A DNA stretch of 63,926 nt, filler included, from an uncultured Methanosarcinales archaeon (GTDB taxonomy: Archaea > Nanobdellota > Nanobdellia > Woesearchaeales > CAZKBD01), in the NCBI GenBank assembly GCA_964550945.1. It is 3 parts of 3 records of this genome, joined end to end, with 100 filler letters (N's around TTAATTAATTAA, not from the genome) between each part and the next. Parts side by side here need not be neighbours in the genome. Positions count along the whole stretch, not along the records: positions 25,896 to 51,280 come from CAZKBD010000019.1; 2 more parts are not named here. One strand, 5' to 3'. Positions 29,256-50,738 of this stretch are shown here, piece after piece. The translations under genes and the position numbers were made by a program. The notes under the pieces are model-generated. The model made no database searches. It worked only from the letters and a program-made list of their open reading frames with translations, and was not told the DNA's origin. The stretch's first letter is position 1, and each line of letters starts with the position of its first letter.

Positions 29256-30791
29256 ATGAAGGCATACTTAAAGAAGTTCCGTGAATTAAGGAAAGAGATC
29301 GAGCCAGATAAAGCTCTAGTAAAGATACAGCACCAAAAAGGCAAATTGACTGCGAAAGAAAGAATTGAGATGCTTTTAGACCCTGGCTCTTTCATTGAGC
29401 TAAATGAGTTTGCTGAGTTAAGCAGCAATAACTTCAATTTACAAGATAAAAAAAAGGCCCGTGATGGCGTTATAACAGGCTATGGCACAGTAAACAAAAG
29501 GCCGGTTTGCGTTTATGCTCAGGATTTTACTTTTATGGGCGGGTCTATGGGCGAGATGCATAACAGAAAGATAAGCGGATTAATGAAGCTTGCTTTGAAA
29601 ACAGGCTGCCCAATTATTGGATTATTGGATTCTGGCGGTGCAAGGATACAAGAGGGGATTACTGGCCTTGATGGAGGAGGCAATATTTTCTATAACAATA
29701 CAATTGCTTCTGGAGTTATCCCCCAGATATCTGCTATTCTTGGGCCTTGCGCAGGCATTGCTGTTTATTCGCCTGCACTTACAGACTTTGTGTTTATGAT
29801 AAATAAGCTTAGCCATATGTTCATAACAGGCCCGGATGTTGTAAAGGTAGTTACAGGCGAGATAACCGATTTTGAAAAATTAGGGGGGGCTGCAGTACAC
29901 AGCCAGAGAAGCGGAAATGTGCATTTTGTTACTGAAACAGAAAAAGAATGTTTTTCCATGATAAAGAAACTATTAAGCTATTTGCCTCAAAATAACCTTG
30001 AAAGCGGCCCTATCTTGAATACAGGAGATGACCCTAACAGGCTTAATAATTCGTTAGAGAATATTGTTCCTATAGACCAAAAAAGCTCTTATGACATGAA
30101 AGATGTCATTAATGAGGTTGTGGATAAAAATTCCTTTTTCGAGACGCATTCTGAGTATGCGAAAAACGCTATTGTTGGTTTGGGAAGGCTTAATAATATG
30201 GTTATTGGCATTGTTGCAAACCAGCCAAAAATATTGGCTGGATGCCTTGACATCAATTCTTCTGATAAGATATCAAGATTTGTGAGATTCTGCGACTGTT
30301 TTAACATACCCTTAGTAAATTTTGTCGATGTAACCGGCTATTTGCCTGGCAAGGAACAGGAGCATAATGGAGTTATAAGGCATGGCGCAAAGATATTGTA
30401 TGCTTATTCGGAAGCGACTGTTCCCAAAATAAGCTTAGTGCTAAGAAAAGCGTATGGAGGCGCCTATATTGCGCTGGTCTCGAAAGATATGGGTTTTGAT
30501 AAGGTTTTAGCATGGCCAACTGCAGAGATTGCTGTTATGGGTGCTGAGCAAGCTGTCAATATAATCTACCGCAAAGAACTTGAAAGCAAAAAGGGTGAAA
30601 AAATAAAAAAGAATAAAATTGATGAATTCTCCAAGAAGTTCTTAAATCCTTATTTGGCTGCAAAAGAAGGAAGAGTTGATATGATCATTGAGCCAAAAGA
30701 GACAAGAAAAACGCTAATCAAAGTTCTTGAAATGTTGGCTAACAAGCGTGAGAGAAGGCCTTCAAAAAAACACGGCAATATCCCATTATAA
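29256..30791 (+). CDS. Acyl-CoA carboxylase carboxyltransferase subunit (PccB/MmdA-like)
   Basis: GKLTAKERI, QDFTFMGGS, DSGGARIQEG, GPCAG, RHGAK, RKAYGGAY, KKHGNIPL. Confidence 0.95.
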   Translation: MKAYLKKFRELRKEIEPDKALVKIQHQKGKLTAKERIEMLLDPGSFIELNEFAELSSNNFNLQDKKKARDGVITGYGTVNKRPVCVYAQDFTFMGGSMGEMHNRKISGLMKLALKTGCPIIGLLDSGGARIQEGITGLDGGGNIFYNNTIASGVIPQISAILGPCAGIAVYSPALTDFVFMINKLSHMFITGPDVVKVVTGEITDFEKLGGAAVHSQRSGNVHFVTETEKECFSMIKKLLSYLPQNNLESGPILNTGDDPNRLNNSLENIVPIDQKSSYDMKDVINEVVDKNSFFETHSEYAKNAIVGLGRLNNMVIGIVANQPKILAGCLDINSSDKISRFVRFCDCFNIPLVNFVDVTGYLPGKEQEHNGVIRHGAKILYAYSEATVPKISLVLRKAYGGAYIALVSKDMGFDKVLAWPTAEIAVMGAEQAVNIIYRKELESKKGEKIKKNKIDEFSKKFLNPYLAAKEGRVDMIIEPKETRKTLIKVLEMLANKRERRPSKKHGNIPL

Positions 30792-30792
30792 G

Positions 30793-31179
30793 ATGGAAAA
30801 TTTAATTGTAACTATAGATGGAAAAGAATATACTGTAAAGCTAGAAGAGCTTGATGATAAAAAACTAAGGGTGCATTTTTCTGGAGAGGTTTTCACTGTT
30901 GAGACAAAAGAGGACATCCAAGAAGAAATTGAGGACCAAATAGAGAAAAAAGAGAATGGTGGAGGAAAAAGGATAGTCAGGGCACCTTTGCCAGGCATAA
31001 TATTTTCTGTGGTTGCTAAAAAAGGGCAAAAGATAAAGAAAGGCAAAACCATCTTAAAATTAATCGCCATGAAGATTGAGAATGACATAACTGCCACAAA
31101 GGATGGGATAATAAAAGAGATAAGAGTCAAGAAAAATGACAGCGTAAATAAAGGAGATATTTTGGCTATTATAGAATGA
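30793..31179 (+). CDS. Biotin carboxyl carrier protein
   Basis: VRAPLPG, biotinyl motif variant IAMKIEN, V.KGD.L; likely start MENLIV. Confidence 0.9.
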   Translation: MENLIVTIDGKEYTVKLEELDDKKLRVHFSGEVFTVETKEDIQEEIEDQIEKKENGGGKRIVRAPLPGIIFSVVAKKGQKIKKGKTILKLIAMKIENDITATKDGIIKEIRVKKNDSVNKGDILAIIE

Positions 31180-31180
31180 T

Positions 31181-31420
31181 CTATTTCTTGCCGTTAGAAG
31201 TTCTGCTAAATAAGATAGCGGTCAATATATTCAATGCCCAAGCCTGAAATACGTTCATATGCATATTTGGCCAGAATTTACCTAAGGTGAAATTCCAAAG
31301 CCACATCACTGGCAAGGCTAGAATAAGGCCTACAATGACACTCAACAGAACAACAATCAATGTAGTGTAGCCTATCTCTATTGCTCTTCTTAACAAAGGG
31401 ATCCTAGTCAAAATACCCAT
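31181..31420 (-). CDS. Small hypothetical membrane protein
   Basis: 79 aa, hydrophobic, PVMWLWN...QAWAL. Confidence 0.6.
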   Translation of the reverse strand: MGILTRIPLLRRAIEIGYTTLIVVLLSVIVGLILALPVMWLWNFTLGKFWPNMHMNVFQAWALNILTAILFSRTSNGKK

Positions 31421-31476
31421 GAGTATATCTATTAAGCTAGGGATATTTAAAGGTTATCATTTTTTAGAGTCAGAAT

Positions 31477-32226
31477 TCAGCAGGATCCATCAGCAGCATT
31501 AGCTATCCTAAACTTGAAGATAAATGGCTTTTGGAAGTAAAATTGTTCAGTGTATTTGTCTGCAATGGTTATTAAACCGCCAGCGATAGTCACTTGGATA
31601 TAATTTGAACCGCTGCTGTCTTGGCCACCAAGGGTATGGATATAATCACATTCTTCGGCTTTTAAAACATATGGAACTGGAGCAGTGCCTTCAGTATTAA
31701 TTTTGTTAGCTAAGTACTCACTTATACTATAAACTAAACCAAGCCGAATAAATAACATGGTCTTAAAGTCAGATAGGGTGGTTTTTACATTGCCTGATTT
31801 TATTGCCCACGGATAATCCACTATAATTGCAACATCATTAGGGTTTATGCTTATATCCACCTTATTTATGCTCTGCTTGGATATTTCCATTGATTCAAAT
31901 TCAGACAACTGCAAGCTTGCATCCATGTTGCTTGTAATATAGCCTGCAATTATGGCTTTTATCTCATCTGTAGTCAGTAGATGGTCATTCTCAACAGCCC
32001 CAACTCCATTAAATATCGCTTCTTCACTTAAAGTGTACAATGAGTTCTCAACATAGGTCATTAAAGGAGCTATTTGGCTTGGTGATAAAGCCAGATTCTC
32101 TAACTCGCTATCTGTGCTTTTTTCTGTTATTCTTGAATTTGTATAGATAACAATTCCTGCTATGGCTATGGTAAGACAACCCAAAATTAAGAAAATGTTT
32201 ATCTGGCTTTTCTTCATTTTATGCAT
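31477..32226 (-). CDS. Hypothetical secreted/membrane-anchored protein with a class III signal-like leader
   Basis: MKKSQ followed by a hydrophobic stretch. Confidence 0.6.
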   Translation of the reverse strand: MHKMKKSQINIFLILGCLTIAIAGIVIYTNSRITEKSTDSELENLALSPSQIAPLMTYVENSLYTLSEEAIFNGVGAVENDHLLTTDEIKAIIAGYITSNMDASLQLSEFESMEISKQSINKVDISINPNDVAIIVDYPWAIKSGNVKTTLSDFKTMLFIRLGLVYSISEYLANKINTEGTAPVPYVLKAEECDYIHTLGGQDSSGSNYIQVTIAGGLITIADKYTEQFYFQKPFIFKFRIANAADGSC

Positions 32227-32273
32227 AATTGTGCTTTGTATTTAAATAAATTATTGTTTTATAGATATTTAGT

Positions 32274-32978
32274 TCATTCGCTATAGTAAACAACATCCCC
32301 TTCTGCTATTTTTTTTATCTTATTGCCTTTAGCTTTTAAAATCAGCCTTAAATCACTATCAATACCAATTATCCTGCCTTTGATTGTTTTACCTCTAGTG
32401 ATAATTTTAACTTCTCTGCCAATCGTGTCTGATGATGATTTCCATTTTTTTAATATCTGTTTGTATTGCTTATCATTGAAGTTTTGGTAGAGTGATTCAA
32501 ATTCATCTAGTATGTATTCTGCAAGCTTTCTATTGTCCACCTTTTTATTTAACATCATCCTCAAGGATACGGCTTTTTCCTGCAGATTTTTAGGTATTTG
32601 GTTGTTAGTATTCATGCCAATGCCAACAACCGCAAATTTAGTATTCCCGAAACTGCTTTCAGTAAGTATGCCGCATAATTTTTTGTTTCTAACAACTAAA
32701 TCGTTTGGCCATTTAACCTTGCTTTTTAGTTTAGTCATTTTTGCAACTGCTTTTTGGCATGCGATTGCTGCACAAAATGTCAAATACCCTAATTTACCCA
32801 TATGCATTGGTTTTAGAAGAATAGAAAGCCATAATCCTCCTTTGGAAGAAACCCATTTCCTCTTAAATCTGCCTCTGCCTTTAGTTTGGATTTCAGCAAT
32901 TACCACAGAATTCTCATTAAATCCCTTAACTTTGTCATTAGTTGATGTTAAGCTTTTGAAGTAGTGGATTTTGTACAT
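32274..32978 (-). CDS. birA: Biotin-protein ligase (no N-terminal HTH)
   Basis: STND, QTKGRGR..RKW.S, KWPND, KLCGIL.E, GIGMN. Confidence 0.95.
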   Translation of the reverse strand: MYKIHYFKSLTSTNDKVKGFNENSVVIAEIQTKGRGRFKRKWVSSKGGLWLSILLKPMHMGKLGYLTFCAAIACQKAVAKMTKLKSKVKWPNDLVVRNKKLCGILTESSFGNTKFAVVGIGMNTNNQIPKNLQEKAVSLRMMLNKKVDNRKLAEYILDEFESLYQNFNDKQYKQILKKWKSSSDTIGREVKIITRGKTIKGRIIGIDSDLRLILKAKGNKIKKIAEGDVVYYSE

Positions 32979-32984
32979 TCTTGA

Positions 32985-34868
32985 TCAGAAAATTTCATTC
33001 TCCTGATTCATTTGCTCTTGCCTTCCAGCACTAACCCATGGATTTAGTTTTGGGGCAAGAGGCCTATGCTCCAGATATTTAGCAACTGCTGTTGATACTA
33101 CTAATATCTTCTCTTTTTTTGAAAGGTTTTTTTTGGTTGATTTTTTCTGCTTCTGCAATTTTTCTATTATCTTGTTATCTTCAATAAAAGAGGTGTGTAT
33201 ATTGCCCCTAGCGAAATTTTCATTGCTTAGAACAAGCTGGTGAAATGGAATTGTTGTTTCAATGCCTTCTATTATGTACTCATTTAATGCTCTTCTTGTC
33301 CTTGCAATTGCCTCTTGCATTGTTTTGCCGTGGCACATCAACTTAGATATTAATGAATCATAAAATGGATTGACTACATGGCCTACATGGCAGCTTGAGC
33401 AAACTCTGATCTCTGGGCCTCCTGGGACTATATAATTTGAAATTGTGCCAATAGACGGCTTAAATTCCTCTGATGGATCTTCTGAGTTTATCCTGCATTC
33501 TATTGCAAAACCAGTGATTTCAACATCTCCCTGGGTGTAAGCTAATTTAGCGCCTGCAGCCAATTTAATTTGTTCTTTGACCAGGTCAACTCCAGTTACC
33601 ATTTCAGTAATACCGTGCTCAACCTGGATTCTTGCATTCATCTCCATGAAAAAGAAATTCCCATTTTTATCAACCAAGAATTCAACTGTTCCTGCTCCTT
33701 CATAGCCAACTGCTTTGGCTGCCTTTATCGCAACCTCACCAAGCTCTTCTCTTAATTCTTTTGTGATTGCTGGTGAAGGGGCTATCTCAATAAGTTTTTG
33801 GTGCCTTCTTTGGATAGAGCACTCTCTTTCCCCTAAATGGAGGGTATTGCCATATTTATCAGACAATATCTGGAATTCTATATGCCTTGGCTTCTCAAGA
33901 TATTTTTCTATGTAAATAGAATCATCATTAAAGGCTGCCTTTGCTTCGGTTTTTACTGCTTCATAAGCTTTTTCTAGTTCGCTCTTTTTTGCTACTAACC
34001 TCATGCCTTTACCGCCACCTCCTGCAACGGCTTTTAGGATTACAGGATAACCAATCTCTCCAGCCATTTTTATGGCTTCTGAGATATTTTGCAAAGGTTT
34101 TACTGCACCAGCTATAACAGGAATTCTTTCTTTTATCATTAATTCCCTGGCTTTAGCTTTATTACCCATTGATTTCAAAGATTCAACGCTTGGGCCTATA
34201 AATACAATTTTCTTTTTTTTACAAAGCTCTGCAAATTCAGCGTTTTCTGCTAGAAAGCCATAACCTGGATGGATAGCATCTGACTTTGATTTTTTGGCTA
34301 TTTTAAGTATCTTTTTTATGTTTAGATAACCATCATTAGAACCTATATTATATGCTTTATTTGCAAACTTAACTGCCAGGCTGTCCTTATCAACTTTTGA
34401 ATATATTACTACAGATTCTATGTTCAGCTCCATACAAGCTCTTATTATCCTAAGAGCAATCTCCCCCCTATTAGCAATCAATATTCTCTTAAAAAGGGGC
34501 TTATCACCCAGGATGCTGTATTCTTTATCTGAGCTATCAGAACCTAAGCCACGAGTTAATAAATCCAGGAATGATTTTGAGGATTTATTCTTAATAACCT
34601 CGTTAAGGCGCCTTTCGTCCAGATGAGGCAATCCTCCTATAACTTTCTTGGTGATTATATCTGCTATGCCTTCCATATCAGGATTATGGAGAAGCTGCTT
34701 ATTTCGCTCTAAGGAAACAATATGGGATCTAACTAAGGATTCTACTTGACTATAGATAAAGGGTATAGATTTCTTTGTTTTTTTAGCTAAATTTTTTACA
34801 AACATGTAGCTAGACTCTAGAGGGGCCAGTAGCTTAGTGACTACCTTGTCAAGTACAGCGCTGCTCAT
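32985..34868 (-). CDS. accC: Biotin carboxylase with a ~120-aa N-terminal extension
   Basis: ILIANRGEIA, IHPGYGFLAEN, GGGGKGMR, RECSIQRRHQK, EMNARIQVEH; C-terminal AVAKYL...NPWVSAGR tail. Confidence 0.93.
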   Translation of the reverse strand: MSSAVLDKVVTKLLAPLESSYMFVKNLAKKTKKSIPFIYSQVESLVRSHIVSLERNKQLLHNPDMEGIADIITKKVIGGLPHLDERRLNEVIKNKSSKSFLDLLTRGLGSDSSDKEYSILGDKPLFKRILIANRGEIALRIIRACMELNIESVVIYSKVDKDSLAVKFANKAYNIGSNDGYLNIKKILKIAKKSKSDAIHPGYGFLAENAEFAELCKKKKIVFIGPSVESLKSMGNKAKARELMIKERIPVIAGAVKPLQNISEAIKMAGEIGYPVILKAVAGGGGKGMRLVAKKSELEKAYEAVKTEAKAAFNDDSIYIEKYLEKPRHIEFQILSDKYGNTLHLGERECSIQRRHQKLIEIAPSPAITKELREELGEVAIKAAKAVGYEGAGTVEFLVDKNGNFFFMEMNARIQVEHGITEMVTGVDLVKEQIKLAAGAKLAYTQGDVEITGFAIECRINSEDPSEEFKPSIGTISNYIVPGGPEIRVCSSCHVGHVVNPFYDSLISKLMCHGKTMQEAIARTRRALNEYIIEGIETTIPFHQLVLSNENFARGNIHTSFIEDNKIIEKLQKQKKSTKKNLSKKEKILVVSTAVAKYLEHRPLAPKLNPWVSAGRQEQMNQENEIF

Positions 34869-34924
34869 CAGTATAGAGAGTTATTTTTGGCTTTTTAAAC
34901 GTTTTGATTAAGCCTAGTTATTTA

Positions 34925-34974
34925 CGAAAATTATATAAATAAAGGTGGTTTTTAGGCTATAGGGGGTTGATATT
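34925..34974 (+). promoter_or_regulatory. BRE/TATA-like promoter and GGGGTTGA ribosome-binding leader of the fabZ-thiolase operon
   Basis: CGAAAATTATATAAAT at 34925-34940; AGGGGGTTGA at 34961-34970 before ATG 34975. Confidence 0.5.
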
Positions 34975-35475
34975 ATGAAAAAGATAGATGATTTGAAGGA
35001 TGAAAAAGGAATGCTCGATTCCAACGCAATTAAGCAGATAATCCCATACGAGTACCCTTTCTTGATGATAGATAGAGTAATAAGCCTTGATAAGAACAAG
35101 ATTGTGGCAATAAAGAACATAAGTTCTGATGAATGGTTCTTAAGAGGCCATTTTTCTGGGTTTCCAATAATGCCCGGGGCTTTAATAATAGAAGGCGTAG
35201 GACAAGCATCTACTTTACTGGTCAGATACAACCTAGAAGACCACTACACTAAGGATGTTCTTGCTTTTAGGATAAAAGAAGCTAAGTTTTCAGCTCCAGC
35301 ATTCCCAGGAGATCAACTAAAATATGAGGCAGCTTTAATGGGCCAAGATGAGAGAGGAGCTTTATTGCAGGCAAAGGTAATCAAAGAAGAGAAAGTGATT
35401 GCTGAGGCAACATTAATGCTGGCTGTTGTTGACAGGAAGCAGTTTAGGGCCCAACATAGCGCAGCCTACAAATAG
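34975..35475 (+). CDS. fabZ: 3-hydroxyacyl dehydratase, FabZ family
   Basis: PYEYPFLMIDRV, FLRGHF.G.PIMPGALIIEG..Q (catalytic His and Glu), F..P..PGD. Confidence 0.9.
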   Translation: MKKIDDLKDEKGMLDSNAIKQIIPYEYPFLMIDRVISLDKNKIVAIKNISSDEWFLRGHFSGFPIMPGALIIEGVGQASTLLVRYNLEDHYTKDVLAFRIKEAKFSAPAFPGDQLKYEAALMGQDERGALLQAKVIKEEKVIAEATLMLAVVDRKQFRAQHSAAYK

Positions 35476-35483
35476 GTGTTCTT

Positions 35484-36608
35484 ATGTATGTAAAAGGCGT
35501 AGGCATGACTAAGTTTTCAGTAGAGGACAGGGCTAATTACGAGATGGTATACGAGGCAACAGAAGAAGCTCTGGCTGATGCAGATACCTCCATAAAGGAT
35601 ATCAAAGCAATTGTTATCTCCACAGTTGACAGCACAGTTAATGATGAAAAGCAACGCCATTACAGCTCTTTGGTTAGCTCGCTTCTTAAGAAAAAAGTCC
35701 CTATAATAAGAGTGCCTGCTGTATGTGGGGGAGGAGGAGCAGCTTTCTGGACTGCCTTGAGATTGAATTATGACCCCATACTTGTGGTTGGAACAGATAA
35801 GATTGCGTGCAATAAAACTGAAATAATAACAAAAGAGATACTTAGTGCAGCTGACAAGGTATACAGCCAGGAAGAAGGCCTGGTGTTTCCTGGTGAGAAT
35901 GCGCTTCTTGCACAGCAGCATATGCTCCAGTTTGATACAACTGCAGATGATCTGGCATTAATCGCATTCAAGAATCATGAAAATGCTTATCTAAACCCCA
36001 AAGCACATTTTTATAAAAAGAAAGTCACATTAGAAACAATAAAGAATTCTCCTATAGTTGCTTCTCCATTTAGGTTGTTTGATTGCAGCATTAGCGTGAA
36101 TGGCGCTGCTGCTGCTGTTTTGACAAATGAGAAAACAGATGTTGAAGTTATTGGCTCAGGAATGGCAACTGATTATATAATGACTTTTGAAAGGGAAAGC
36201 TTAACTGAGTTAAAGGCAACCAAGCTGGCTGCAAAACAAGCTTATGAGCAGGCAAAGATTGCGCCTAGTGACATTGATGTGGTTGAGGTGCATGATGCTT
36301 TTACAATAATGGAGTTGATGGCGTATGAGGATCTTGGTTTTGTTGAGAAAGGCTATGGCTCTAAATTAGTCAGGGATGGAACAACAAAGCTAGATGGCAG
36401 GCTTCCAGTAAATACTGCCGGTGGTTTAAAGGCAAGAGGCCATCCAATAAGCCCTACTGGAATGGCTCAGATTTATGAGATAGTGAAGCAATTAAGGGGC
36501 GAATGTAAAGAGAGGCAGGTAAAAAATCATAAATATGGGCTTACTCAAAATATTGGCGGAGTTGGAGCTTCAATAACAGTCCATATATTCAAGAAGGCAG
36601 GTGGTTAA
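35484..36608 (+). CDS. Thiolase, archaeal/SCP2-like type, copy 1
   Basis: PAVCGGG (active Cys), N...NPKAH, EVHDAF, GGLKARGHP..PTG, NIGG. Confidence 0.9.
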   Translation: MYVKGVGMTKFSVEDRANYEMVYEATEEALADADTSIKDIKAIVISTVDSTVNDEKQRHYSSLVSSLLKKKVPIIRVPAVCGGGGAAFWTALRLNYDPILVVGTDKIACNKTEIITKEILSAADKVYSQEEGLVFPGENALLAQQHMLQFDTTADDLALIAFKNHENAYLNPKAHFYKKKVTLETIKNSPIVASPFRLFDCSISVNGAAAAVLTNEKTDVEVIGSGMATDYIMTFERESLTELKATKLAAKQAYEQAKIAPSDIDVVEVHDAFTIMELMAYEDLGFVEKGYGSKLVRDGTTKLDGRLPVNTAGGLKARGHPISPTGMAQIYEIVKQLRGECKERQVKNHKYGLTQNIGGVGASITVHIFKKAGG

Positions 36609-37734: not shown

Positions 37735-37930
37735 TATAAGATTTGATATTGAAAGATGTAAAGATTGCAAGCTTTGTGTAGGTGTCTGCCCTCAAAAAAA
37801 TATAATGATCTCAAAAAAATTGAACAAAAATGGTTATCATTATGCTGAAATAATTGATAAAGAAAAATGCACTGGCTGCGGCTTTTGCTTCCAGATGTGC
37901 CCTGATCTGGTTATTGAGGTTGAGAAATGA
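37727..37930 (+). CDS. 2[4Fe-4S] ferredoxin / delta subunit of 2-oxoacid:ferredoxin oxidoreductase
   Basis: CKDCKLCVGVCP and CTGCGFCFQMCP. Confidence 0.92.
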   Translation: MVNIRFDIERCKDCKLCVGVCPQKNIMISKKLNKNGYHYAEIIDKEKCTGCGFCFQMCPDLVIEVEK

Positions 37931-39701: not shown

Positions 39702-39702
39702 A

Positions 39703-41363: not shown

Positions 41364-43075
41364 TTTGTTCTTTGTTTCTTAAAAAAATGTTCTAACCTTG
41401 ACTTATAATCGCTCTGGTTGTATAGCTTATACCATCTACTGGCTATCCTTCCGCCCCCTGTCTTAATCGCAAGATTTCTCCACTTTCTTTTTATATCCCT
41501 CCATGCGCTTAATAATGGCGTATAAAATAGGTTCCTTATCTCGTCTGATGGCACATCCATAAAACTTTGATTCCTGAGCCTGCTAAATGTATTTTTAACA
41601 AACATTTTTGAATAAAAAATACTAAATTGTAATGGAAAGCCTAAGGTGCCATTCCATAACCAGTTGATCCAGTTACCGTAGTTTATACTGCTCTCAATGA
41701 AATTTCCTAAGTAAACCCTTTTCATAAGAAGGGTTGGAAGTTTTTGAAGCTCGTAAGGGTCTATGTCCTCTGGCTTGGGGTTGTAACAAAGCCACAATCC
41801 ATCATATTTATCCCAATTAACCATCTCTAATGGAAGCAATCGATTTTCTTTTTCCAGCTTCTCTCTTAACACAGAGCCTGGCAAAGGCAGCGTTTTCATT
41901 ATCTGGAAGCTGTCAATTTTCGCTCTTTTGATAAATCGCATATATGTTTTTGCCTTTTGTTTAAGTGTAAGAGCTGATTTGTATTTGGAATCGCTAAATG
42001 AGGGGTATCCAAATATAAACATGCCGTGGATATAGAATAGCTTTGATAATTTTCTTGATCTCCTTTCTAATAACTCTGCTGTCACTCCTTTTCTCATTGA
42101 TTTAAGCTCTTCATTTATTGGGCTTTCATAGCCTATGCAAAGAGATTTTACTCCTGCATATTTCATAGCTTCCAATAGCTCGTCGTTTTCAGCTATCTCT
42201 GTCCTTACTTGCACATTTAAGCGGATTTTCTTCTTAAACTGCCGTTTATGGTCTCCAATCATTCTACAAAGGTTTATTGTGTCCTGGATGTCCTGGGCAA
42301 AATTATCATCTGTAAAAAAGAATTCTTTGTATCCAAGGTCGCTGTATTTTATGATGTTTTCTACAACCTTATAAGGGGACATGGATTTATAGCTGCCATA
42401 TAAGTCATGCACTACACAGAACTCGCAGTTAAAATTGCAGCCTCTTCCTCTACTGATTGGAATATGCGTGAATTTCTTGTTTAGATGCCGGACTATTGTT
42501 AAATCAGGCGATTCAAACAAATTTAGGTTATTTATGGGCTCTCTTCTGCCTGTGAAAACATATTCGCCTTTCTCATTAATGAAGCTTATCCCTGGTATAT
42601 TATCAAGAGGGTTTCCTTCTAGCATAGCCTCTACAACTTCTTTCGCGGTTTCTTCTCCCTCTCCATGAACAACTATGTCAACTCCTTTACTTAGCGCTTC
42701 TTTTGGCAGGGCATCTACATGGCTGCCTCCTGCTACAACTATGCTGCCAAATTTCTTGTAGGTTTGCGCTATTGAATACATCCTAAGTATTGAACTTGAC
42801 ATGCCCCCATATAAGAACGCAAATTTTGCCGGCTTTTGCCTTTGCAAAAATTCATGGTCAGGCATTCCAATAAAATCTAATGGCCCCCGGTAGTTGTTTT
42901 CATCTATGCAATAGCTATCATATTTCTTATCTATCTTAAGGTTTGTAAGAACAGACAATATTCCAACTGGAGGCATTACAACCCAAGAAAATATGTTATT
43001 TTTGGTATGCTGGGGATATTGAGGAATCACGCCAATAATAGTTGTGCTTGGTATTCCAGAATCCTTAAAGCTCAT
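41357..43075 (-). CDS. Cobalamin-binding radical SAM enzyme with extended C-terminus
   Basis: AGGSH, VHGEGE, RGCNFNCEFC, FTDDNF, PLPGS, W..YDG; likely start MSFKDSG at 43075. Confidence 0.88.
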   Translation of the reverse strand: MSFKDSGIPSTTIIGVIPQYPQHTKNNIFSWVVMPPVGILSVLTNLKIDKKYDSYCIDENNYRGPLDFIGMPDHEFLQRQKPAKFAFLYGGMSSSILRMYSIAQTYKKFGSIVVAGGSHVDALPKEALSKGVDIVVHGEGEETAKEVVEAMLEGNPLDNIPGISFINEKGEYVFTGRREPINNLNLFESPDLTIVRHLNKKFTHIPISRGRGCNFNCEFCVVHDLYGSYKSMSPYKVVENIIKYSDLGYKEFFFTDDNFAQDIQDTINLCRMIGDHKRQFKKKIRLNVQVRTEIAENDELLEAMKYAGVKSLCIGYESPINEELKSMRKGVTAELLERRSRKLSKLFYIHGMFIFGYPSFSDSKYKSALTLKQKAKTYMRFIKRAKIDSFQIMKTLPLPGSVLREKLEKENRLLPLEMVNWDKYDGLWLCYNPKPEDIDPYELQKLPTLLMKRVYLGNFIESSINYGNWINWLWNGTLGFPLQFSIFYSKMFVKNTFSRLRNQSFMDVPSDEIRNLFYTPLLSAWRDIKRKWRNLAIKTGGGRIASRWYKLYNQSDYKSRLEHFFKKQRTNQ

Positions 43076-43214
43076 TATTGCTAATATAATACTGTTAGTT
43101 ATATAAGCTTTATGATTCATTTGCCTTAATCTAACTATCAAAAGAAGGGCCAATTTTGTAGAAAGTTTTAAAAAAAGCCAGTGTTTCTTGCTTATAATAA
43201 GGGGGTTGAATATT

Positions 43215-43967
43215 ATGAATAACACGAAAGATATGGGTGGGAAAGTTGCATTAATAACAGGCGCTTCTCAAGGCATTGGGAAGGCTATTGCCATTGCATT
43301 GGCAAAAGAAGGAGCCAGCATAATCATTAATGACATAGCGCCAGCAAAAGAGCAGGCAGAGAAATTTGCTGAGGAAATAAAATCAATGGGTGTTGGGTCA
43401 ATTGTTATTCTTGGAGATGTCTCAAAATTCGAAGACTGCAAAAAGATGGCTGAAGAAGCGCAGGCAAAATTCCAAAAAGTTGACATTTTGGTCAATAATG
43501 CAGGAATCACAAAAGACCGGACATTAAAAAAGATGACTCCAGAGGAATGGAACGCTGTGATAAACATAAATCTTACAGGAGTTTATAATGTAACTCATAG
43601 CATTCTGCCATTGATTCCAGAAGGCGGAAGGATTATAAGCCTATCCTCTATTGTAGGGATTGGTGGAAATTTCGGCCAGTGCAATTATTCAGCAACAAAA
43701 GCAGGGATCATTGGCCTGACAAAATCCTTGGCAAGAGAAGTTGGAAAAAACAAGATAACAGTTAATGCAATAGCTCCTGGATTCATTAAAAGCAAAATGA
43801 CAGACCAGATACCTTTAATCATGTTAGACAAAATACTGGAAGCAATACCTATGCAGGAAATGGGAACCCCAGAAGATATTGCTAATCTGGCTGTTTTCCT
43901 TGCTTCAGACAAAGCAAAGTACATATCAGGTCAGGTTATAAGGGTTGATGGGGGGATTATTATATAA
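43215..43967 (+). CDS. fabG: 3-oxoacyl reductase (FabG/PhaB-type SDR)
   Basis: TGASQGIG, NNAGITKD, GNFGQ.NYSATKAG, VNAIAPGFI, VDGG. Confidence 0.92.
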   Translation: MNNTKDMGGKVALITGASQGIGKAIAIALAKEGASIIINDIAPAKEQAEKFAEEIKSMGVGSIVILGDVSKFEDCKKMAEEAQAKFQKVDILVNNAGITKDRTLKKMTPEEWNAVININLTGVYNVTHSILPLIPEGGRIISLSSIVGIGGNFGQCNYSATKAGIIGLTKSLAREVGKNKITVNAIAPGFIKSKMTDQIPLIMLDKILEAIPMQEMGTPEDIANLAVFLASDKAKYISGQVIRVDGGIII

Positions 43968-44043
43968 TGTTATTTGCGTTATATAACGGTATTTTACAAT
44001 AAATCTTATAAATGGCTATAAGATTCTAAAATAGGGGGGCATT

Positions 44044-45201
44044 ATGGATTTTAACTTCACACCAAAGCAATTGATGATAAAGAGAATGATTACTGAATTT
44101 GCTAATAAAGAGATAGTTCCATTTGCCGCAGATATAGATCATGAGGAGATATTTCCAGAAACACAGATAAAAAAGCTCGCAAAACTAGGCGTTATGGGTA
44201 TGTCTATTCCCCAAAAATATGGTGGAGCTGAGCTTGATAATATTTCTCAGACAATAATAATGGAAGAGGTAAGCAGGGCATGCGCTTCAACATCTGTAAC
44301 AATGGGAGCCCATACTTCTCTTTGCTGTTATCCTATTGTAAATAATGGCACTGACGAGCAAAAAGAAAGGTTTTTGCCAAAACTAGCTTCAGGCGAATAT
44401 TTAGGAGCGTTTGCATTAACAGAGCCAGCTGCTGGCTCAGATGCAGTCAATGTCCAGACAACTGCAATGAGAGACGGAGATGAATACATAATAAATGGGA
44501 ATAAGATCTTTATCACAAATGGCGGAAAGGCTGACCTCATCAATATTGTGGCAACAACTGATAAGAGCGCAAAGCATAACGGCCTTAGCGTATTTGCAAT
44601 CGAAACAAAAAAAGCCCGGGGATTCAGCCTGGGAAAGAAAGAAGACAAGCTTGGTCTAAGGGGTTCCAACACCCAAGAGCTTGTTTTCCAGGATATGAGA
44701 GTTCCAAAAGAGAATCTGATAGGTGGTGAAGAAGGTGAAGGGTTTAAGATTGCAATGGGCGTATTCAATTCTGGAAGAATAGGAATAGGCGTTCAAGGAG
44801 TTGGAATTGCGCAGGCAGCATTGGACGAATGCATAAAATATGTTAAAGAACGCGAACAGTTTGGAAGAAAGCTGTTCAAGTTCCAGGCAATAAGCTTTAT
44901 GCTTGCAGAGATGGCAACAAAGATAGATGCAGCGCGTTTGCTTTGCTTAAAAGCTGCTCATGTAAAAGACCAGAAAAAGAATTATATAAAAGCTGCTGCA
45001 ATGGCAAAGCTTTATGGCTCAGACGTTGCAATGGAAGTTACAAGAAAAGCAATACAGATACATGGCGGCTATGGATTTATCAAAGACTATCCCCTAGAAA
45101 GATTCTATCGTGATGCCAAGATAACTGAAATATATGAGGGAACATCTGAGATACAAAAGCTGATTATAGGAAATGAGCTTTTGGGAAAAGGAATAGAATG
45201 A
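44044..45201 (+). CDS. Acyl-CoA dehydrogenase (butyryl-CoA dehydrogenase-like)
   Basis: FALTEP.AGSD, NG.KIFITNG, KLG.RGS.T, REQFG, QIHGGYG, IYEGTSEIQ. Confidence 0.95.
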   Translation: MDFNFTPKQLMIKRMITEFANKEIVPFAADIDHEEIFPETQIKKLAKLGVMGMSIPQKYGGAELDNISQTIIMEEVSRACASTSVTMGAHTSLCCYPIVNNGTDEQKERFLPKLASGEYLGAFALTEPAAGSDAVNVQTTAMRDGDEYIINGNKIFITNGGKADLINIVATTDKSAKHNGLSVFAIETKKARGFSLGKKEDKLGLRGSNTQELVFQDMRVPKENLIGGEEGEGFKIAMGVFNSGRIGIGVQGVGIAQAALDECIKYVKEREQFGRKLFKFQAISFMLAEMATKIDAARLLCLKAAHVKDQKKNYIKAAAMAKLYGSDVAMEVTRKAIQIHGGYGFIKDYPLERFYRDAKITEIYEGTSEIQKLIIGNELLGKGIE

Positions 45202-45998
45202 ACATTGTCGTTTGCATCAAGCAGGTGCCAGACACAACAGAAGTGAAGATAGACCAGAAAACAGGCCGCTTAATAAGAGAGGGTGTTCCATCTATAATAA
45301 ATCCTGAAGACAAAAATGCATTGGAAGAAGCATTACGAATAAAAGAAAAGATTAATTCTCAGGTTACTGTGGTCACAATGGGCCCTCCACAAGCAGAAGA
45401 TGCTTTAAGAGAAGCACTTGCAATGGGAGCTGATGAAGGCATTCTACTTTGCGATTTCAAGTTTGCAGGCTCTGATACCTGGGCAACTGCAAATGCGCTA
45501 AAAGCAGGCATTAAACAGATCGGAAAATATGATTTGATACTTTGCGGAAGGCAGGCAATTGATGGTGATACTGCTCAAGTTGGCCCGCAATTGGCTGAAG
45601 CGCTGCAAATACCCCAGATAACTTATGCTCAAAAGATAGAGATAGACAAGATCAACAATAAAAAAGTAAAGGTAGAAAGGGAGATGGAAGATGGCTATGA
45701 AATAATCGAGTCTAGTCTTCCTGTGCTTGTAACATGCACCCATAGCATAAATCATCCCAGGTATCCTTCTCTAAACGGGATTGATAATTCATTTAAGGCA
45801 GAGATAAAAAAGTGGACAGCAGCAGACATAAATGCAGTTGACTCTGAGATAGGCATTAACTCCAGCCCAACAAAGGTAAAGAAAACATTTAGCCCGCAGG
45901 CAAAAGGCCAGGGAGTTATTTTAAATGGCAGCATAAAAGAGATGGCACATGAGCTGATTGAAAAGCTGAAAGAAAAGGAAATAATCCAAAAATTCTAA
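45198..45998 (+). CDS. etfB: Electron transfer flavoprotein beta subunit
   Basis: VCIKQVPDT, REGVPSIINP.D, GSDTWAT, GRQAIDGDTAQVGP. Confidence 0.95.
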   Translation: MNIVVCIKQVPDTTEVKIDQKTGRLIREGVPSIINPEDKNALEEALRIKEKINSQVTVVTMGPPQAEDALREALAMGADEGILLCDFKFAGSDTWATANALKAGIKQIGKYDLILCGRQAIDGDTAQVGPQLAEALQIPQITYAQKIEIDKINNKKVKVEREMEDGYEIIESSLPVLVTCTHSINHPRYPSLNGIDNSFKAEIKKWTAADINAVDSEIGINSSPTKVKKTFSPQAKGQGVILNGSIKEMAHELIEKLKEKEIIQKF

Positions 45999-45999
45999 A

Positions 46000-47165
46000 A
46001 TGGCCAAGATCAAGCTAAAAGACAATTATCCTGGATTTTCAATGATAATAGATGGAATCACATTAAACAAAGGAGACGATTTTGCAGAAGTCAATGAAAG
46101 CTTGGAACTTCAAAATGCGATTGACAGCGATTATGTTGAAGCCTATGAAGAAAAAAAAGAGATTAAAGAGGAGAAGGTTAAAGATGGTGAAGAAGTCTGG
46201 ATTTTTGCAGAGCAGCGAAATAATAACCTATCAAGAGTTGTATTTGAATTATTGGGAAAAGCGCAAGAGCTTGCAAACAAATTGAATGTAAAGGTTGCTG
46301 CTATATTGGCTTGCGAATCAGACAGCGGCCTTTCAAAATCTCTAGCAGAGTATGGCGCTGATAAAGTATACTTAATTGAGAGCAGGCTCCTTAAGGATTA
46401 TACTACGGGATTATATGCTAAGGTAATATCTGAACTGATAAATAAAGAGGAGCCCCAGATAATGGTCTATGGCGCTACAAATATTGGGAGGGATTTGGCC
46501 CAAGAGTTGCCCAAAGGATAACAACCGGCCTTACTGCTGATTGCACTGGCCTGGACATAGATGAAGACGGCTTGCTTTTGCAGACAAGGCCTGCTTTTGG
46601 GGGTAATATAATGGCTCAGATAAAATGTCCGAACCATAAGCCTCAGATGTCAACTGCCAGGCCGGGAGTTTTCAAGATAGCTAAGCCGAACACAAAAAGG
46701 GAAGCAGAGATAATCCGGATAAAGCCGAACTTAACTGAAAATGACTCTCTAACAACGATAATTGAGATAATAAAATCCAAAAAGAAAAAAGTAAATCTTG
46801 AGGAAGCTAAAATAATTATCTCCGGCGGAAGAGGGTTGTGCAATAAGGAAAATTTTAATCTTATAGAGGAGCTTGCATCACTGATAGGGGCAGAAGTAGG
46901 TGCTTCAAGGGCAGTTGTTGATGCAGGATGGATTGCAAAAGACCACCAGGTTGGCCAGACAGGGAAAACAGTAAGGCCAAAGCTCTACATTGCATGCGGG
47001 ATATCTGGAGCAATACAACATAGGGCAGGAATGCAAAACTCGGATATGATAATCGCCATAAACAAAGATCCAAATGCAATGATATTTAGTGCAGCTGATT
47101 ACGGGATTGTTGCTGATGTAAATCAATTCCTGCCAGCGCTGATAAAAGAGCTAAAAGGTGAATAA
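46000..47165 (+). pseudogene. etfA: Electron transfer flavoprotein alpha subunit, split by a 1-nt frameshift near 46500 (real lesion or sequencing error)
   Basis: ORF1 ends ...[11 protein letters not shown]; adding one C to the run GGCCCAAGA restores [21 protein letters not shown], joining QTRPAFGG...SGGRG...GASR...QVGQTG...GISGAIQH. Confidence 0.85.
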
Positions 47166-47815
47166 TGATATACCTAGGTATTAGACTGACATTAGCTCCA
47201 TTTGTTAATCTGTGGGTAAGAAATATTTCTGGATTAGAAAACCTAAAAAAAGAAGATTCTTTCATATTTGCCTGCAATCATGGGAGTTTTGCAGAAGACT
47301 TGATATTGCCATGCAATATCATCCCTTATATCAATAAATCTGTACATATCTACTGCAATGATAGGTTCTATAAGCATTATCCCATAAGAAAATTTTTAGA
47401 GTATGGAAGATGCATTCCAATAAGGGTGGGAGAGAAAAGTGAAGAGGCAAAAAGAGTTAATGAAGGGGCATTTAATCTGGCGCTAGGTTATTTAAAAAAT
47501 AAAGAGCCCATAGGCATTTTTCCAGAAGGCCACAGAAGCCATGACGGCAGCATTATAGAAGCTAGAACCGGCATTGCAAAATTGGCTTTGACTGCCAAAG
47601 TTCCTGTCATTCCAATAGGAGCAATAGGCACTTATGAGATTTTGCCGAAAGGCTCAAAATTTCCTAAATTTAAAAGATGCGATATAAATATTGGAGGCCC
47701 CATCTACCTAGACAAGTACTTCGGAAAGGAGAATGACAAAAAGATTTTAAAAGACGTAACTGTTATTATCATGAAAGAGATAGCAAAATTAGCTAAGAAA
47801 GAGTATAACTATTAA
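47165..47815 (+). CDS. PlsC-family (lyso)phospholipid/glycerol-phosphate acyltransferase, copy 1
   Basis: NHGSFAED (variant of HxxxxD), IFPEGHRS, TG.A.LA...KVPVIP. Confidence 0.85.
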   Translation: MIYLGIRLTLAPFVNLWVRNISGLENLKKEDSFIFACNHGSFAEDLILPCNIIPYINKSVHIYCNDRFYKHYPIRKFLEYGRCIPIRVGEKSEEAKRVNEGAFNLALGYLKNKEPIGIFPEGHRSHDGSIIEARTGIAKLALTAKVPVIPIGAIGTYEILPKGSKFPKFKRCDINIGGPIYLDKYFGKENDKKILKDVTVIIMKEIAKLAKKEYNY

Positions 47816-47816
47816 A

Positions 47817-48446
47817 ATGGTCCACCCAATAGGCAAGCGGATTTTTAAGGCCATAATACGGCCTTATATAAAAAAAATAAACGGATTAGAGAATATACCC
47901 AAAGACCTCAATTTCATAATTGCTGCTAACCACTCCAGTTATATAGATCATCTGATATTAGCCACAATATTTGTTAACCGCCTTAATAAGCGGATGCATT
48001 TTTTGGCAAAAAAAGAGCATTTTGATGGCTGGTTCCAAAGAAGGTTTCATAAATGGGCAGATGCTATTCCAATTGACAGAGAAAGTGGCGGTAAAGAGGC
48101 GTTGGCGTGGGCAATAACTGCCCTCAATAGTGGAAAGATAGTCTCAATTTATCCAGAAGGGACAAGAACATTAAATGGAAGGATACAAAAAGGAAAAACT
48201 GGTGTTGCGAGGCTTGCTCTGGCTGCAAAAGTGCCTGTATTGCCTATTGGGCTTGTTGGAACATTTGATATCATGCCTAAAGGAAAATTTTTTCCAAGAT
48301 TCAAAAGATGCACTGTAAATATAGGAAAGTTAATGTACTTTAAAGAATATTATGGAAAATGTGACGATTATGACATATCAAGAAAGGTTACTGACAGGAT
48401 AATGAAAGAGATAGCAAGACTATCAAACCAAGAACAAGGTTATTAA
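47817..48446 (+). CDS. plsC: 1-acyl-sn-glycerol-3-phosphate acyltransferase family, copy 2
   Basis: NHSSYID (HxxxxD), FLAKKE, PIDR, YPEGTR, KTGVARLAL..KVPVLP. Confidence 0.9.
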   Translation: MVHPIGKRIFKAIIRPYIKKINGLENIPKDLNFIIAANHSSYIDHLILATIFVNRLNKRMHFLAKKEHFDGWFQRRFHKWADAIPIDRESGGKEALAWAITALNSGKIVSIYPEGTRTLNGRIQKGKTGVARLALAAKVPVLPIGLVGTFDIMPKGKFFPRFKRCTVNIGKLMYFKEYYGKCDDYDISRKVTDRIMKEIARLSNQEQGY

Positions 48447-48447
48447 A

Positions 48448-49422
48448 ATGGGAAAGATATCAGTCATTGGAGCTGGAGGATGGGGTACTGCATTATCAGT
48501 TGTGCTCTCAGAGAATAATAAGGTAAACCTATGGGTTCGTGAGCCGGAATTGTTTAAGGTTATGAAGAGTGAGAATGAAAATAAATTGTTTCTTCCAGGA
48601 GTAAAAATTTCGGGCTCAGTTGTATTGAGCAATGATCTGGCTGAGGTTGTAACTGGATCCGATATTATTTTTATGGCTGTTCCTACCCAATTTGTCAGGG
48701 GTGTTGCAAAACAAATATCGAAATATGTTAAAAAGGAAGCTGTTCTTGTCAGTGTTGCCAAAGGCCTTGAAGAGAATAGCTATAAAAGAATGTCTGAAGT
48801 GATTGAGGAAGAAACGAATGGAAAGATGGTTGCGTTGTCTGGCCCAAATCACAGCGAAGAGGTAGGCAGAAAAATACCAACTGCGACAGTAATTGCCTCA
48901 AAAAATGATAGCGCATTGCTTGATGTTAAGAAAGCCTTATCTACCCCTTATTTTAAAGTATACCCTCATAATGATATTGTTGGTGTAGAGATATGCGGCG
49001 CAATAAAGAATATAACTGCAATAGCAGCAGGCATATGTGACGGGCTGGGCTTCGGGGATAATTCAAGAGCCAGCATAATAACTCTTGGCTTGACTGAGAT
49101 GAATAGGTTTGGAAGATATTTTGGCGCTGAGCAAAAAACAGTTTATGGCCTTGCTGGTGTTGGTGATTTAGTCGCTACATGCACAAGCGTTCATTCAAGA
49201 AATAGGTTTGTGGGCCAAAAGATAGCTGAAGGAAAATCTTTTGAGGAAATACAGAAAGAGATGCATGGAATGGTGGCTGAGGGGATAAGAACCACTAAAG
49301 CGGTCTATGAATTCAGCCAAAAGAATGGCGTAGATATGCCTTTGACAACTCAGGTCTACAAAGTATTGTATGAACGAAAAGAGCTAAAAAAAGCAATTAA
49401 GGACCTGATAATGTTGATTTGA
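48448..49422 (+). CDS. gpsA: NAD(P)H-dependent glycerol-3-phosphate dehydrogenase
   Basis: GAGGWGTAL, KGLE, LSGPNH..EV, GAIKN..AIA.G, GLAGVGDL.ATC.S.HSRN, AEG. Confidence 0.95.
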   Translation: MGKISVIGAGGWGTALSVVLSENNKVNLWVREPELFKVMKSENENKLFLPGVKISGSVVLSNDLAEVVTGSDIIFMAVPTQFVRGVAKQISKYVKKEAVLVSVAKGLEENSYKRMSEVIEEETNGKMVALSGPNHSEEVGRKIPTATVIASKNDSALLDVKKALSTPYFKVYPHNDIVGVEICGAIKNITAIAAGICDGLGFGDNSRASIITLGLTEMNRFGRYFGAEQKTVYGLAGVGDLVATCTSVHSRNRFVGQKIAEGKSFEEIQKEMHGMVAEGIRTTKAVYEFSQKNGVDMPLTTQVYKVLYERKELKKAIKDLIMLI

Positions 49423-50670: not shown

Positions 50671-50738
50671 AAAAAAAGAGTACAGCAACAGCTATATAAA
50701 GCTAATTAAAAAATAAGAAAAAAATAGAACTAAGCTAT

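Follow-up and report, generated by a model that had tools for sequence, protein, structure and literature searches.

The 63,926-base stretch of DNA analysed here, called the window throughout, comes from a metagenome-assembled genome (MAG, designated G000) of a woesearchaeal archaeon and carries, at positions 29256-49422, genes for acyl-CoA and glycerolipid enzymes beside rps2, the gene for ribosomal protein uS2. With somewhat more confidence than doubt, we read this region as a woesearchaeal system in which coenzyme A (CoA)-based acyl-chain synthesis, independent of acyl carrier protein (ACP), feeds the synthesis of acyl-ester lipids on sn-glycerol-3-phosphate (G3P). Its conserved core consists of FabZ, a thiolase, a DUF35-DUF362 fusion, a second thiolase and FabG, together with two PlsC-type acyltransferases and GpsA, all arranged around uS2, LigT and a TRAM-domain protein. 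The genes for an acyl-CoA dehydrogenase (ACAD) of butyryl-CoA dehydrogenase (Bcd) type with its electron-transferring flavoprotein (Etf), for a 2-oxoacid:ferredoxin oxidoreductase (OFOR) and for a carboxylase are accessory, belonging to the subclade that includes G000. This gene arrangement is far beyond chance, with 36-39 of 41 loci in other species sharing it. The genomic potential for the pathway partly supports the first-pass annotation, which had proposed a complete bacterial-type route to membrane lipids in an archaeon.

The conservation of the neighbourhood emerges from a scan of GpsA loci, one genome per species, in which an alignment of four GpsA sequences served as the query and 46 loci were returned. 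Forty-one of these form the Woesearchaeota-type set, in which uS2 or PlsC-type genes adjoin GpsA; all are from other species, and three of them belong to the genomes G009, G023 and G015 themselves, relatives that represent three other families of the order to which G000 belongs. The remaining five contain GpsA alone (one Asgard, one archaeon and three Acidobacteria, 40-52% identity). Genes were counted within at most 10 kb on either side of GpsA, and since many loci are short, the counts are lower bounds. Within the set, uS2 adjoins GpsA in 39 loci, convergently and within 200 nt in 28, and the two loci without uS2 terminate at GpsA, while two PlsC-type genes stand directly upstream of GpsA in 36; synteny among Woesearchaeota MAGs, which the first-pass annotation had left to be looked for, is thus present. 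LigT is found in 25 loci and the TRAM gene in 27, and on the acyl-chain side FabG occurs in 29, thiolase in 27, the DUF35-DUF362 fusion in 21 and FabZ in 14. The accessory genes are scarcer: ACAD is present in 13 loci, EtfB in 14, EtfA in 15, OFOR in five, biotin carboxylase in six and the carboxyltransferase in one, the biotin carboxylase gene adjoining FabZ in six loci and in G009. G009, G023 and G015 have these genes as well, with gene order unchanged and with uS2 and the TRAM gene adjoining.

The window itself joins three contigs of G000, a MAG of 1.97 Mb in 177 contigs (92.5% complete, 2.3% contamination, 36.6% GC): positions 1-25795 are contig C18, 25896-51280 are C19 (25.4 kb) and 51381-63926 are C54. 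The joins at 25796-25895 and 51281-51380, each a pair of 44-N runs with 12 bases between, are filler only, so gene adjacency across them means nothing. The lipid-gene region lies entirely within C19, where calls of open reading frames (ORFs) together with Pfam and NCBIfam searches recover every gene that the first-pass annotation had listed, at the same positions; its placement of everything on one contig holds for this region and fails for the neighbouring glycosylation, topoisomerase, NurA and phospholipase D (PLD)-type genes, which lie on other contigs. The asserted tie to an archaeal chromosome also stands, given that uS2 is of archaeal type and that the records of the closest relatives are titled 'Candidatus Woesearchaeota archaeon' or 'Nanoarchaeota archaeon'. 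Many related records bear the title 'uncultured Methanosarcinales archaeon', yet their uS2 is 67-79% identical to that of this Woesearchaeon. The genes of the locus are as follows, with scores in bits and family cut-offs after 'versus'.

29256-30791, plus strand: carboxyltransferase of an acyl-CoA carboxylase, PccB/MmdA type, 511 aa (PF01039, 618.5; subfamily TIGR01117, 750.7, below its cut-off of 998.8)
30727-31179, plus strand: biotin carboxyl carrier protein (BCCP), 150 aa (PF00364, 56.6; BCCP-type NCBIfam matches all below cut-off)
31477-32226, minus strand: 249-aa hypothetical protein, encoded between BCCP and BirA (no family assigned by Pfam or NCBIfam)
32274-32978, minus strand: BirA biotin-protein ligase, ligase only, without the repressor domain (TIGR00121, 183.9 versus 83.1; PF03099, PF02237)
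32985-34868, minus strand: biotin carboxylase, 627 aa, divergent from fabZ (TIGR00514, 633.7 versus 626.5; NF006367, 643.9 versus 597)
34975-35475, plus strand: FabZ-type hot-dog 3-hydroxyacyl dehydratase (NF000582, 117.8 versus 113; PF07977)
35484-36608, plus strand: thiolase 1, SCP-x/archaeal type (PF22691, 170; best solved relatives 7YVY, 4YZO and 6ESQ/6ET9)
36601-37734, plus strand: DUF35-DUF362 fusion (PF04015, 139; DUF35 part from the predicted structure)
37727-37930, plus strand: OFOR delta subunit, 67 aa, with two CxxCxxCxxxCP ferredoxin motifs (from the ORF and its sequence)
37927-38982, plus strand: OFOR alpha subunit, VorB-like (NF005507 VorB, 531 versus 399; PF01855, PF17147)
38979-39701, plus strand: OFOR beta subunit, thiamine pyrophosphate-binding (PF02775; NF008820, 123, below cut-off)
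39679-40239, plus strand: OFOR gamma subunit (PF01558, 143; TIGR02175, 100 versus 81.1)
40230-41363, plus strand: thiolase 2, a paralog of thiolase 1 (PF22691, 146.9; NF004720, 324, below cut-off)
41357-43225, minus strand: B12-binding radical S-adenosylmethionine (SAM) protein, 622 aa (PF04055, PF02310; best NCBIfam match HpnJ, 109 versus 577)
43188-43967, plus strand: FabG-type 3-ketoacyl reductase of the short-chain dehydrogenase/reductase (SDR) family (NF009466, 261.7 versus 222; TIGR01830, 296.6 versus 297.75)
44044-45201, plus strand: ACAD, Bcd/acryloyl-CoA reductase type (5OL2_C, 435; NF042972 AcrC, 500.8, below 640)
45198-45998, plus strand: EtfB, the small Etf subunit, nearest to the Etfs of bifurcating complexes
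46000-47165, plus strand: EtfA, two ORFs here (46000-46521 and 46572-47165) owing to a 1-nt frameshift (PF01012, PF00766)
47165-47815, plus strand: PlsC-type acyltransferase 1, 216 aa (PF01553, 67.9; HX4E, PEGHRS)
47817-48446, plus strand: PlsC-type acyltransferase 2, 209 aa (PF01553, 105.6; TIGR00530, 92.6, below 102.95; NHxxxxD, IDR, PEGTRT)
48448-49422, plus strand: GpsA, NAD(P)H-dependent glycerol-3-phosphate dehydrogenase (NF000942, 396.6 versus 257; PF07479, PF01210, PF20618)
49423-50025, minus strand: uS2 (rps2), archaeal/eukaryotic type (TIGR01012, 246.2 versus 211.5)
50125-50688, minus strand: LigT-type RNA 2',3'-cyclic phosphodiesterase (TIGR02258, 161 versus 65.7)
50739-51113, minus strand: TRAM-domain protein (NF053605, 74.9, below its cut-off of 85)

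From ACAD through GpsA, the intergenic gaps are -4 to +1 nt, which agrees with the tight single-strand coupling described earlier for these last six genes, and gpsA and rps2 do abut, convergently, with zero nucleotides between them. The biotin carboxylase has an N-terminal extension of 125 aa with no Pfam match at E 0.1. The B12-binding radical SAM gene interrupts the cluster on the opposite strand; a tblastn comparison with the clusters of G009, G023 and G015 gave no match for it, and it was rejected as a pathway member for this lack of conservation. There is a second B12-binding radical SAM gene in the window, at 17899-19311 (plus strand), and both match HpnJ, BchE or lipid-type models far below the cut-offs.

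The acyl-chain part of the core centres on the thiolases and the DUF35-DUF362 fusion. The gene for thiolase 1 overlaps that of the fusion, and its solved relatives 6ESQ and 6ET9 are the thiolase of an archaeal complex of thiolase, 3-hydroxy-3-methylglutaryl-CoA synthase and DUF35 protein. The DUF35 domain of the fusion is invisible to sequence search (no Pfam match at E 0.1, no PDB sequence match at E 1), and it is the predicted structure (pLDDT 89) that upholds the DUF35 fusion named by the first-pass annotation. In it, residues 1-100 adopt a DUF35 fold of zinc ribbon and OB domain, matching the DUF35 chains 6OK1, 7PXP, 5M3K, 6ESQ_E and 3IRB (Z 5.5-6.5, Foldseek probability 1.0). Residues 101-365 form the DUF362 part, which resembles the N-domains of LarA and malate racemase over about 210 residues (Z 16-19, rmsd 2.7-3.0); the likeness to LarA extends to the fold of its N-terminal domain only (chain residues ~34-300 of ~420), and the DUF362 part has no invariant histidine in a 19-sequence alignment. 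The fusion family comprises 406 clusters at E <=1e-10, and among the best 120 of them all source names are Woesearchaeota or Nanoarchaeota, the proteins being annotated only as 'DUF362'. Some orthologs are about 490 aa long, with an additional C-terminal part. DUF362 is found in both lipid clusters of G000, fused to DUF35 in the cluster described here and to a ferredoxin domain at C21:1649-2722.

The closest known counterpart is the fatty acid synthase of Sulfolobus acidocaldarius, which, according to the accessible text of a preprint, a DUF35 protein assembles from ketothiolase, reductase and dehydratase (10.1101/2024.07.05.601840). Both systems are CoA-based and ACP-independent, condense by thiolase, keep a DUF35 scaffold gene next to the thiolase gene, and employ a ketoreductase of SDR type together with a dehydratase of the hot-dog fold. 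The gene set of G000 matches the Sulfolobus route step for step. They differ in that the dehydratase here is of FabZ type, DUF35 is fused to DUF362, and the genes form a single string that also contains GpsA and a pair of PlsC-type genes; the terms DPANN, PlsC and glycerol-3-phosphate do not occur in the preprint. Bacterial type II fatty acid synthesis (FAS II) also uses FabG and FabZ. The two further components that define it, ACP (PF00550) and ketoacyl synthase (KAS, PF00109), have no match in G000, and ACP was also not found in G009 and G023; the route would therefore not be the bacterial FAS II one. In G015, there is a weak ACP-like match (C11:96513-96701; 24 bits, in an 84-aa frame) about 10 kb from its lipid cluster.

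In the proposed pathway, the two SCP-x-type thiolases, held by the zinc-ribbon/OB scaffold of the fusion, would condense acyl-CoA with acetyl-CoA, and the FabG-type reductase and FabZ-type dehydratase would turn the resulting 3-ketoacyl-CoA into enoyl-CoA. In the subclade of G000, the enoyl-CoA would be reduced by the Bcd/EtfAB-type flavoprotein complex, probably with NADH and with co-reduction of ferredoxin. One may guess that the VorB-like OFOR supplies branched starter CoA esters and, as a further guess, that the biotin-dependent acyl-CoA carboxylase, which has its own BirA, supplies malonyl- or methylmalonyl-CoA as an extender. GpsA would convert dihydroxyacetone phosphate into G3P, and the two short PlsC-type enzymes would acylate first G3P and then lysophosphatidic acid (LPA) to yield phosphatidic acid, from which polar lipids would be completed by enzymes that other parts of the genome encode, namely a CarS-like cytidylyltransferase, PgsA-/PssA-like transferases and phosphatidylserine (PS) decarboxylase. 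We infer which way the cycle runs, how long its chains become, which acyl donor is used and which acyltransferase is specific for G3P or LPA. As for the first-pass proposal of a path from 2-oxoacids through acyl-CoA to phosphatidic acid, the genes that it named are there, and the part that does not hold generally is the OFOR entry and the ACAD-Etf step, which are accessory.

The glycerolipid part resembles bacterial phosphatidic acid synthesis in its GpsA, which scores over cut-off, in the HX4D and PEGTR motifs of PlsC and in the PgsA/PssA-like transferases and PS decarboxylase downstream. It differs in that PlsY, ACP and KAS were not found and no long PlsB is present, the tandem short PlsC-type enzymes presumably carrying out both acylations with acyl-CoA, and in that a CarS-like enzyme takes the place of CdsA. 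Acyltransferase 2 keeps all canonical PlsC motifs, and its only solved relative is the PlsC of Thermotoga maritima (5KYM, E 9e-18). Acyltransferase 1 has HX4E where most of its orthologs have HX4D, and its motif III is more variable than that of paralog 2; most related loci conserve motifs I and III in either paralog. It appears that one paralog would act as G3P acyltransferase and the other as LPA acyltransferase.

Gene content was also compared across 41 genomes, namely G000 and 40 relatives of its order, a set distinct from the 41 loci. On the archaeal side of glycerolipid synthesis, G000 has no match to the iron-containing alcohol dehydrogenase (Fe-ADH) family of sn-glycerol-1-phosphate (G1P) dehydrogenase type (PF13685) or to UbiA (PF01040), and its 24-bit match to PcrB (PF01884), the family of geranylgeranylglyceryl phosphate synthase (GGGPS), is HisA (TIGR00007, 186 bits). 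Of the archaeal lipid genes that the first-pass annotation wished to see checked, those for G1P dehydrogenase, GGGPS and digeranylgeranylglyceryl phosphate synthase (DGGGPS) were thus not detected in G000. No real GGGPS was found in any of the 41 genomes. The Fe-ADH_2 (PF13685) matches in G009 and G023 are AroB, those in 14 other genomes having been left unchecked, and UbiA-family matches in the relatives amount to a MenA-like protein in G015 and a weak DGGGPS-like prenyltransferase in G023 (82 bits versus 269), with none in G009.

Enzymes that would act downstream of phosphatidic acid are present. G000 has three CDP-alcohol transferase domains, one PgsA-like and one in a PgsA/PssA-like fusion beside a PS decarboxylase, over cut-off, as well as a CarS-like protein of 189 aa (PF01864, 104 bits; PF01148, 40; NF003114, 126, below its cut-off of 148); CarS is present in 20 of the 41 genomes. 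The completeness originally claimed goes too far: GpsA, the PlsC family and head-group enzymes are present, but neither PlsB nor PlsY was found, the cytidylyltransferase is CarS-like instead of CdsA, and ACP and KAS are lacking among the matches. A second lipid cluster, at C21:1095-7763, contains the genes for the CarS-like protein, a DUF362 protein with 2x[4Fe-4S], a PHP phosphoesterase, two PlsC-type enzymes, a glycosyltransferase, a PgsA-like enzyme and a radical SAM protein (490 aa, C21:6291-7763, next to ftsZ). The PHP protein is, at a guess, a phosphatidate phosphatase. The cluster was rejected as a conserved partner of the core, given that its glycosyltransferase had a single match among the 40 relatives, at 30% identity.

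Bacterial Lgt takes a diacylglyceryl group from phosphatidylglycerol. Lgt of bacterial type (PF01790) occurs in 38 of the 41 genomes, with 150-275 bits in nearly all, and in a control set it matched bacteria only. G000 encodes it at C3:18596-19315 and C1:14692-15417, and in G009 it shares a contig with the lipid cluster, gpsA being about 5.8 kb away. According to the available text of a 2025 paper, no archaeal Lgt homologs had been identified (PMC12462473). The frequency of Lgt, together with the downstream head-group enzymes, supports synthesis of G3P ester lipids.

Whether the acyl-CoA enzymes build chains or ferment is the main point of contention. A rather unlikely, if far from negligible, account holds that they form a module of fermentative reverse beta-oxidation or amino-acid metabolism from which a short acid is released, and that PlsC-PlsC-GpsA re-acylate lysolipids or scavenged host fatty acids. 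On this account, the VorB-like OFOR would turn 2-oxoacids into acyl-CoA, and condensation with acetyl-CoA and reduction by Bcd-EtfAB would lead to butyryl- or caproyl-CoA, a redox sink that also yields reduced ferredoxin. Bcd-EtfAB and caffeyl-CoA reductase-Etf complexes bifurcate electrons and run reductively in anaerobes. The ACAD has as its best solved relative the short-chain butyryl-CoA dehydrogenase of the clostridial Bcd-EtfAB complex (5OL2_C, 435 bits), and EtfB is nearest to Etfs of bifurcating fermentative complexes (6FAH_B, of caffeyl-CoA reductase-Etf, 302 bits; 5OL2_B, 283; 7KOE, 225; 4KPU, 217; 7QH2, 200; human 1EFV, 105); gene order, ACAD-etfB-etfA, is also shared with these complexes. 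G000 differs from them in a 65-aa N-terminal extension of EtfA, which belongs to no known family, and in the context of the genes, which is one of lipid synthesis instead of butyrate fermentation, bifurcation being predicted only. Fermentation would also suit the VorB score of the OFOR alpha subunit, the single AMP-forming acyl/acetyl-CoA synthetase of G000, and an acetyl-CoA hydrolase/transferase-family protein (C20:2332-2736, in a 589-aa frame) that G000 alone has among the 41 genomes, and DPANN archaea are generally portrayed as lipid-scavenging fermenters in the accessible portions of two papers (PMC8204110, PMC7242380). Against this, FabZ, thiolase, DUF35-DUF362 and FabG are the conserved partners of PlsC-PlsC-GpsA, whereas ACAD-Etf and OFOR are confined to the minority of loci counted above, and in G000 the genes from ACAD through GpsA are translationally coupled.

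The direction of the cycle is further suggested by the type of enzyme. FabG and FabZ types work with the R-3-hydroxy isomer, the one that belongs to synthesis. The likeness of ACAD and EtfB to subunits of complexes that run reductively counts for synthesis as well. Crotonase (ECH_1) was not found in G000, G009, G015 or G023, and only one of the 41 genomes has a match over cut-off. In addition, G000 has no phosphotransacylase (Pta/Ptb) and no ADP-forming acyl-CoA synthetase over cut-off. These findings support acyl-chain synthesis and speak against release of a short acid.

It would also be conceivable, if very unlikely in our estimation, that the cluster serves to synthesise or remodel acyl compounds apart from bulk membrane lipid, such as the diacylglyceryl donor of Lgt, glycolipids or storage lipids, with a membrane made of host-derived archaeal lipids. 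Lgt is indeed much more frequent in the order than GpsA, which is found at E <=1e-25 in 14 of the 41 genomes; in the C21 cluster, a gene resembling diglucosyl-diacylglycerol synthase sits between the two extra PlsC-type genes, and the CarS-like enzyme and isoprenoid genes have been retained. Yet this glycosyltransferase cluster is not conserved, as noted above, and the account still needs G3P acyl-ester synthesis, differing from the pathway proposed here only in amount and purpose.

That mis-assembly or mis-binning attached bacterial DNA to an archaeal contig can practically be dismissed: the enzyme types are bacterial, read depth is low (~4-6) and one related record is titled as belonging to the candidate phyla radiation (CPR), but uS2 and GpsA are neighbours in species after species, contigs of two samples bridge the junction, and the CPR-titled record itself carries archaeal uS2. 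These samples, X1 and X3, hold the sequence in contigs made by another assembler, and they provide the continuity across gpsA-rps2 on which the first-pass annotation had set store: the X1 contig spans 47486-49496 with no differences, and the X3 contig spans 48833-49986 with four other letters. As X1 and X3 may be the source samples of the MAG, the comparative evidence weighs more than the bridging contigs. Run X5 (soil, another study, share 0.21) gave partial cover, mostly at 90-99% likeness, and was excluded as evidence; gaps in the cover by X3 or X5 carry no information. The record in question, LBZW01000033.1, is a 5-kb contig filed as a CPR bacterium (Nomurabacteria) and holds EtfBA-PlsC-PlsC-GpsA along with uS2, at 77% identity to the window; given its archaeal uS2, it is probably mis-binned.

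Several observations nevertheless weigh against ester-lipid synthesis by the route proposed. Given that G000 is incomplete and fragmented, absences of genes from it are not proven. The cytidylyltransferase scores as CarS rather than CdsA, and since G000 also has a polyprenyl (geranylgeranyl diphosphate) synthase and a geranylgeranyl reductase, the use of isoprenoid lipids probably continues as well. No PlsY (PF02660) match or PlsB-type protein was found in G000, PlsX not having been searched; all four of its PF01553 proteins have 205-216 aa, so none is of PlsB size, and they align to T. maritima PlsC only from its residue 51, which means that they are without its N-terminal membrane-anchoring part. 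In its accessible text, one survey deemed archaeal PlsC and PlsY homologs unlikely to be enzymes of membrane synthesis (Coleman 2019, PMC6431249). The nearness of ACAD to short-chain butyryl-CoA dehydrogenases implies that the cycle could stop at C4-C6, as in fermentation, and the CoA-transferase-family protein on C20 could discharge short acyl-CoAs as acids. Moreover, with ACAD/Etf in so few loci, and OFOR in fewer, no enoyl reductase could be assigned to the core module in most relatives, NADPH-dependent families not having been searched. Lastly, etfA is frameshifted in the assembly, by 1 nt in a C run. It is a single ORF in G009 and G023, and in the X1 contig one extra C behind 46498 puts both halves in one frame, so that an error of the assembly, where depth is low (4.5), is the probable cause of the frameshift; the repair rests on that one contig.

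The two kinds of system to which this one belongs are already known, fatty acid synthesis on CoA in archaea and lipid genes of bacterial type in archaeal MAGs. As far as their accessible texts go, published reports describe GpsA in Woesearchaeota, and PlsC/PlsY in marine group II, DPANN and Asgard archaea (Yokobori 2016, PMC5059525; Coleman 2019, PMC6431249), FabG/FabI/FabZ in DPANN (Zhang 2024, PMC10936187), and Mss/Ger homologs in Woesearchaeia, from which bacterial-like lipids have been suggested (Sahonero-Canavesi 2022, PMC13159169; Ding 2025, PMC11868695). Some Woesearchaeota that bear the methylerythritol phosphate (MEP) pathway have also been reported to hold genes of bacterial fatty-acid synthesis, among them one for a 'bacterial G3P dehydrogenase' (Castelle 2021, PMC8204110, main text as available); in the supplement of that paper, the family labelled 'G3P', fam00008, consists of DAO-type flavoproteins and is not GpsA, and the word 'acyltransferase' is absent from two supplementary files. 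What these reports share with the present case is archaeal genomes with bacterial-type lipid genes; the difference, within the portions available, is that they concern single genes, whereas a whole neighbourhood is described here. Neither the neighbourhood as a conserved unit nor the fusion of DUF35 with DUF362, the link to Bcd-Etf or the pairing of PlsC genes was found described in the openly available literature, to which subscription papers and bioRxiv supplements could add.

Elsewhere in the window, contig C18 carries a large glycosylation cluster with SPASM radical SAM genes, in which two genes (7253-8275 and 8975-9976) belong to the GT9 heptosyltransferase family. This family is of lipopolysaccharide-core type in bacteria. 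On C54, a GHMP kinase is apparently split into an ORF with the GalK signature and GHMP N domain (60044-61204) and a 104-aa ORF with the GHMP C domain (61217-61531), which may be another assembly frameshift. Also on C54, and hence on a different contig from the lipid genes, a PLD-type two-domain protein (51431-52396, minus strand) was considered as a cardiolipin synthase and rejected, scoring only as a NucT-like nuclease or as DISARM DrmC-like.

The split between G1P ether lipids in archaea and G3P ester lipids in bacteria is a puzzle central to early cell evolution and to how eukaryotes arose. A wider claim, which we hold to be rather unlikely, would be that a whole clade of Woesearchaeota has crossed this lipid divide, no longer making G1P isoprenoid ethers and possessing instead an ester membrane with diacylglyceryl anchors for Lgt-type lipoproteins, an ACP-free synthase in which the DUF35-DUF362 fusion organises two thiolases, FabG and FabZ and a bifurcating Bcd-EtfAB reduces the enoyl-CoA, and a pair of short PlsC paralogs that replaces PlsB and PlsY. 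On the narrower reading favoured here, there would be a naturally occurring lineage of archaea whose only route found to a glycerolipid backbone is bacterial and is wired, in a conserved string, to an ACP-free synthase. The compact and expressible set of two acyltransferases, GpsA, thiolase/DUF35-DUF362, FabG and FabZ would allow one to ask whether archaea can make ester lipids and live with them. The finding also bears on how DPANN cells acquire their membranes, on why bacterial-type Lgt is nearly universal in the order, and on which organisms produce the fatty-acid lipids in small-cell groundwater fractions.

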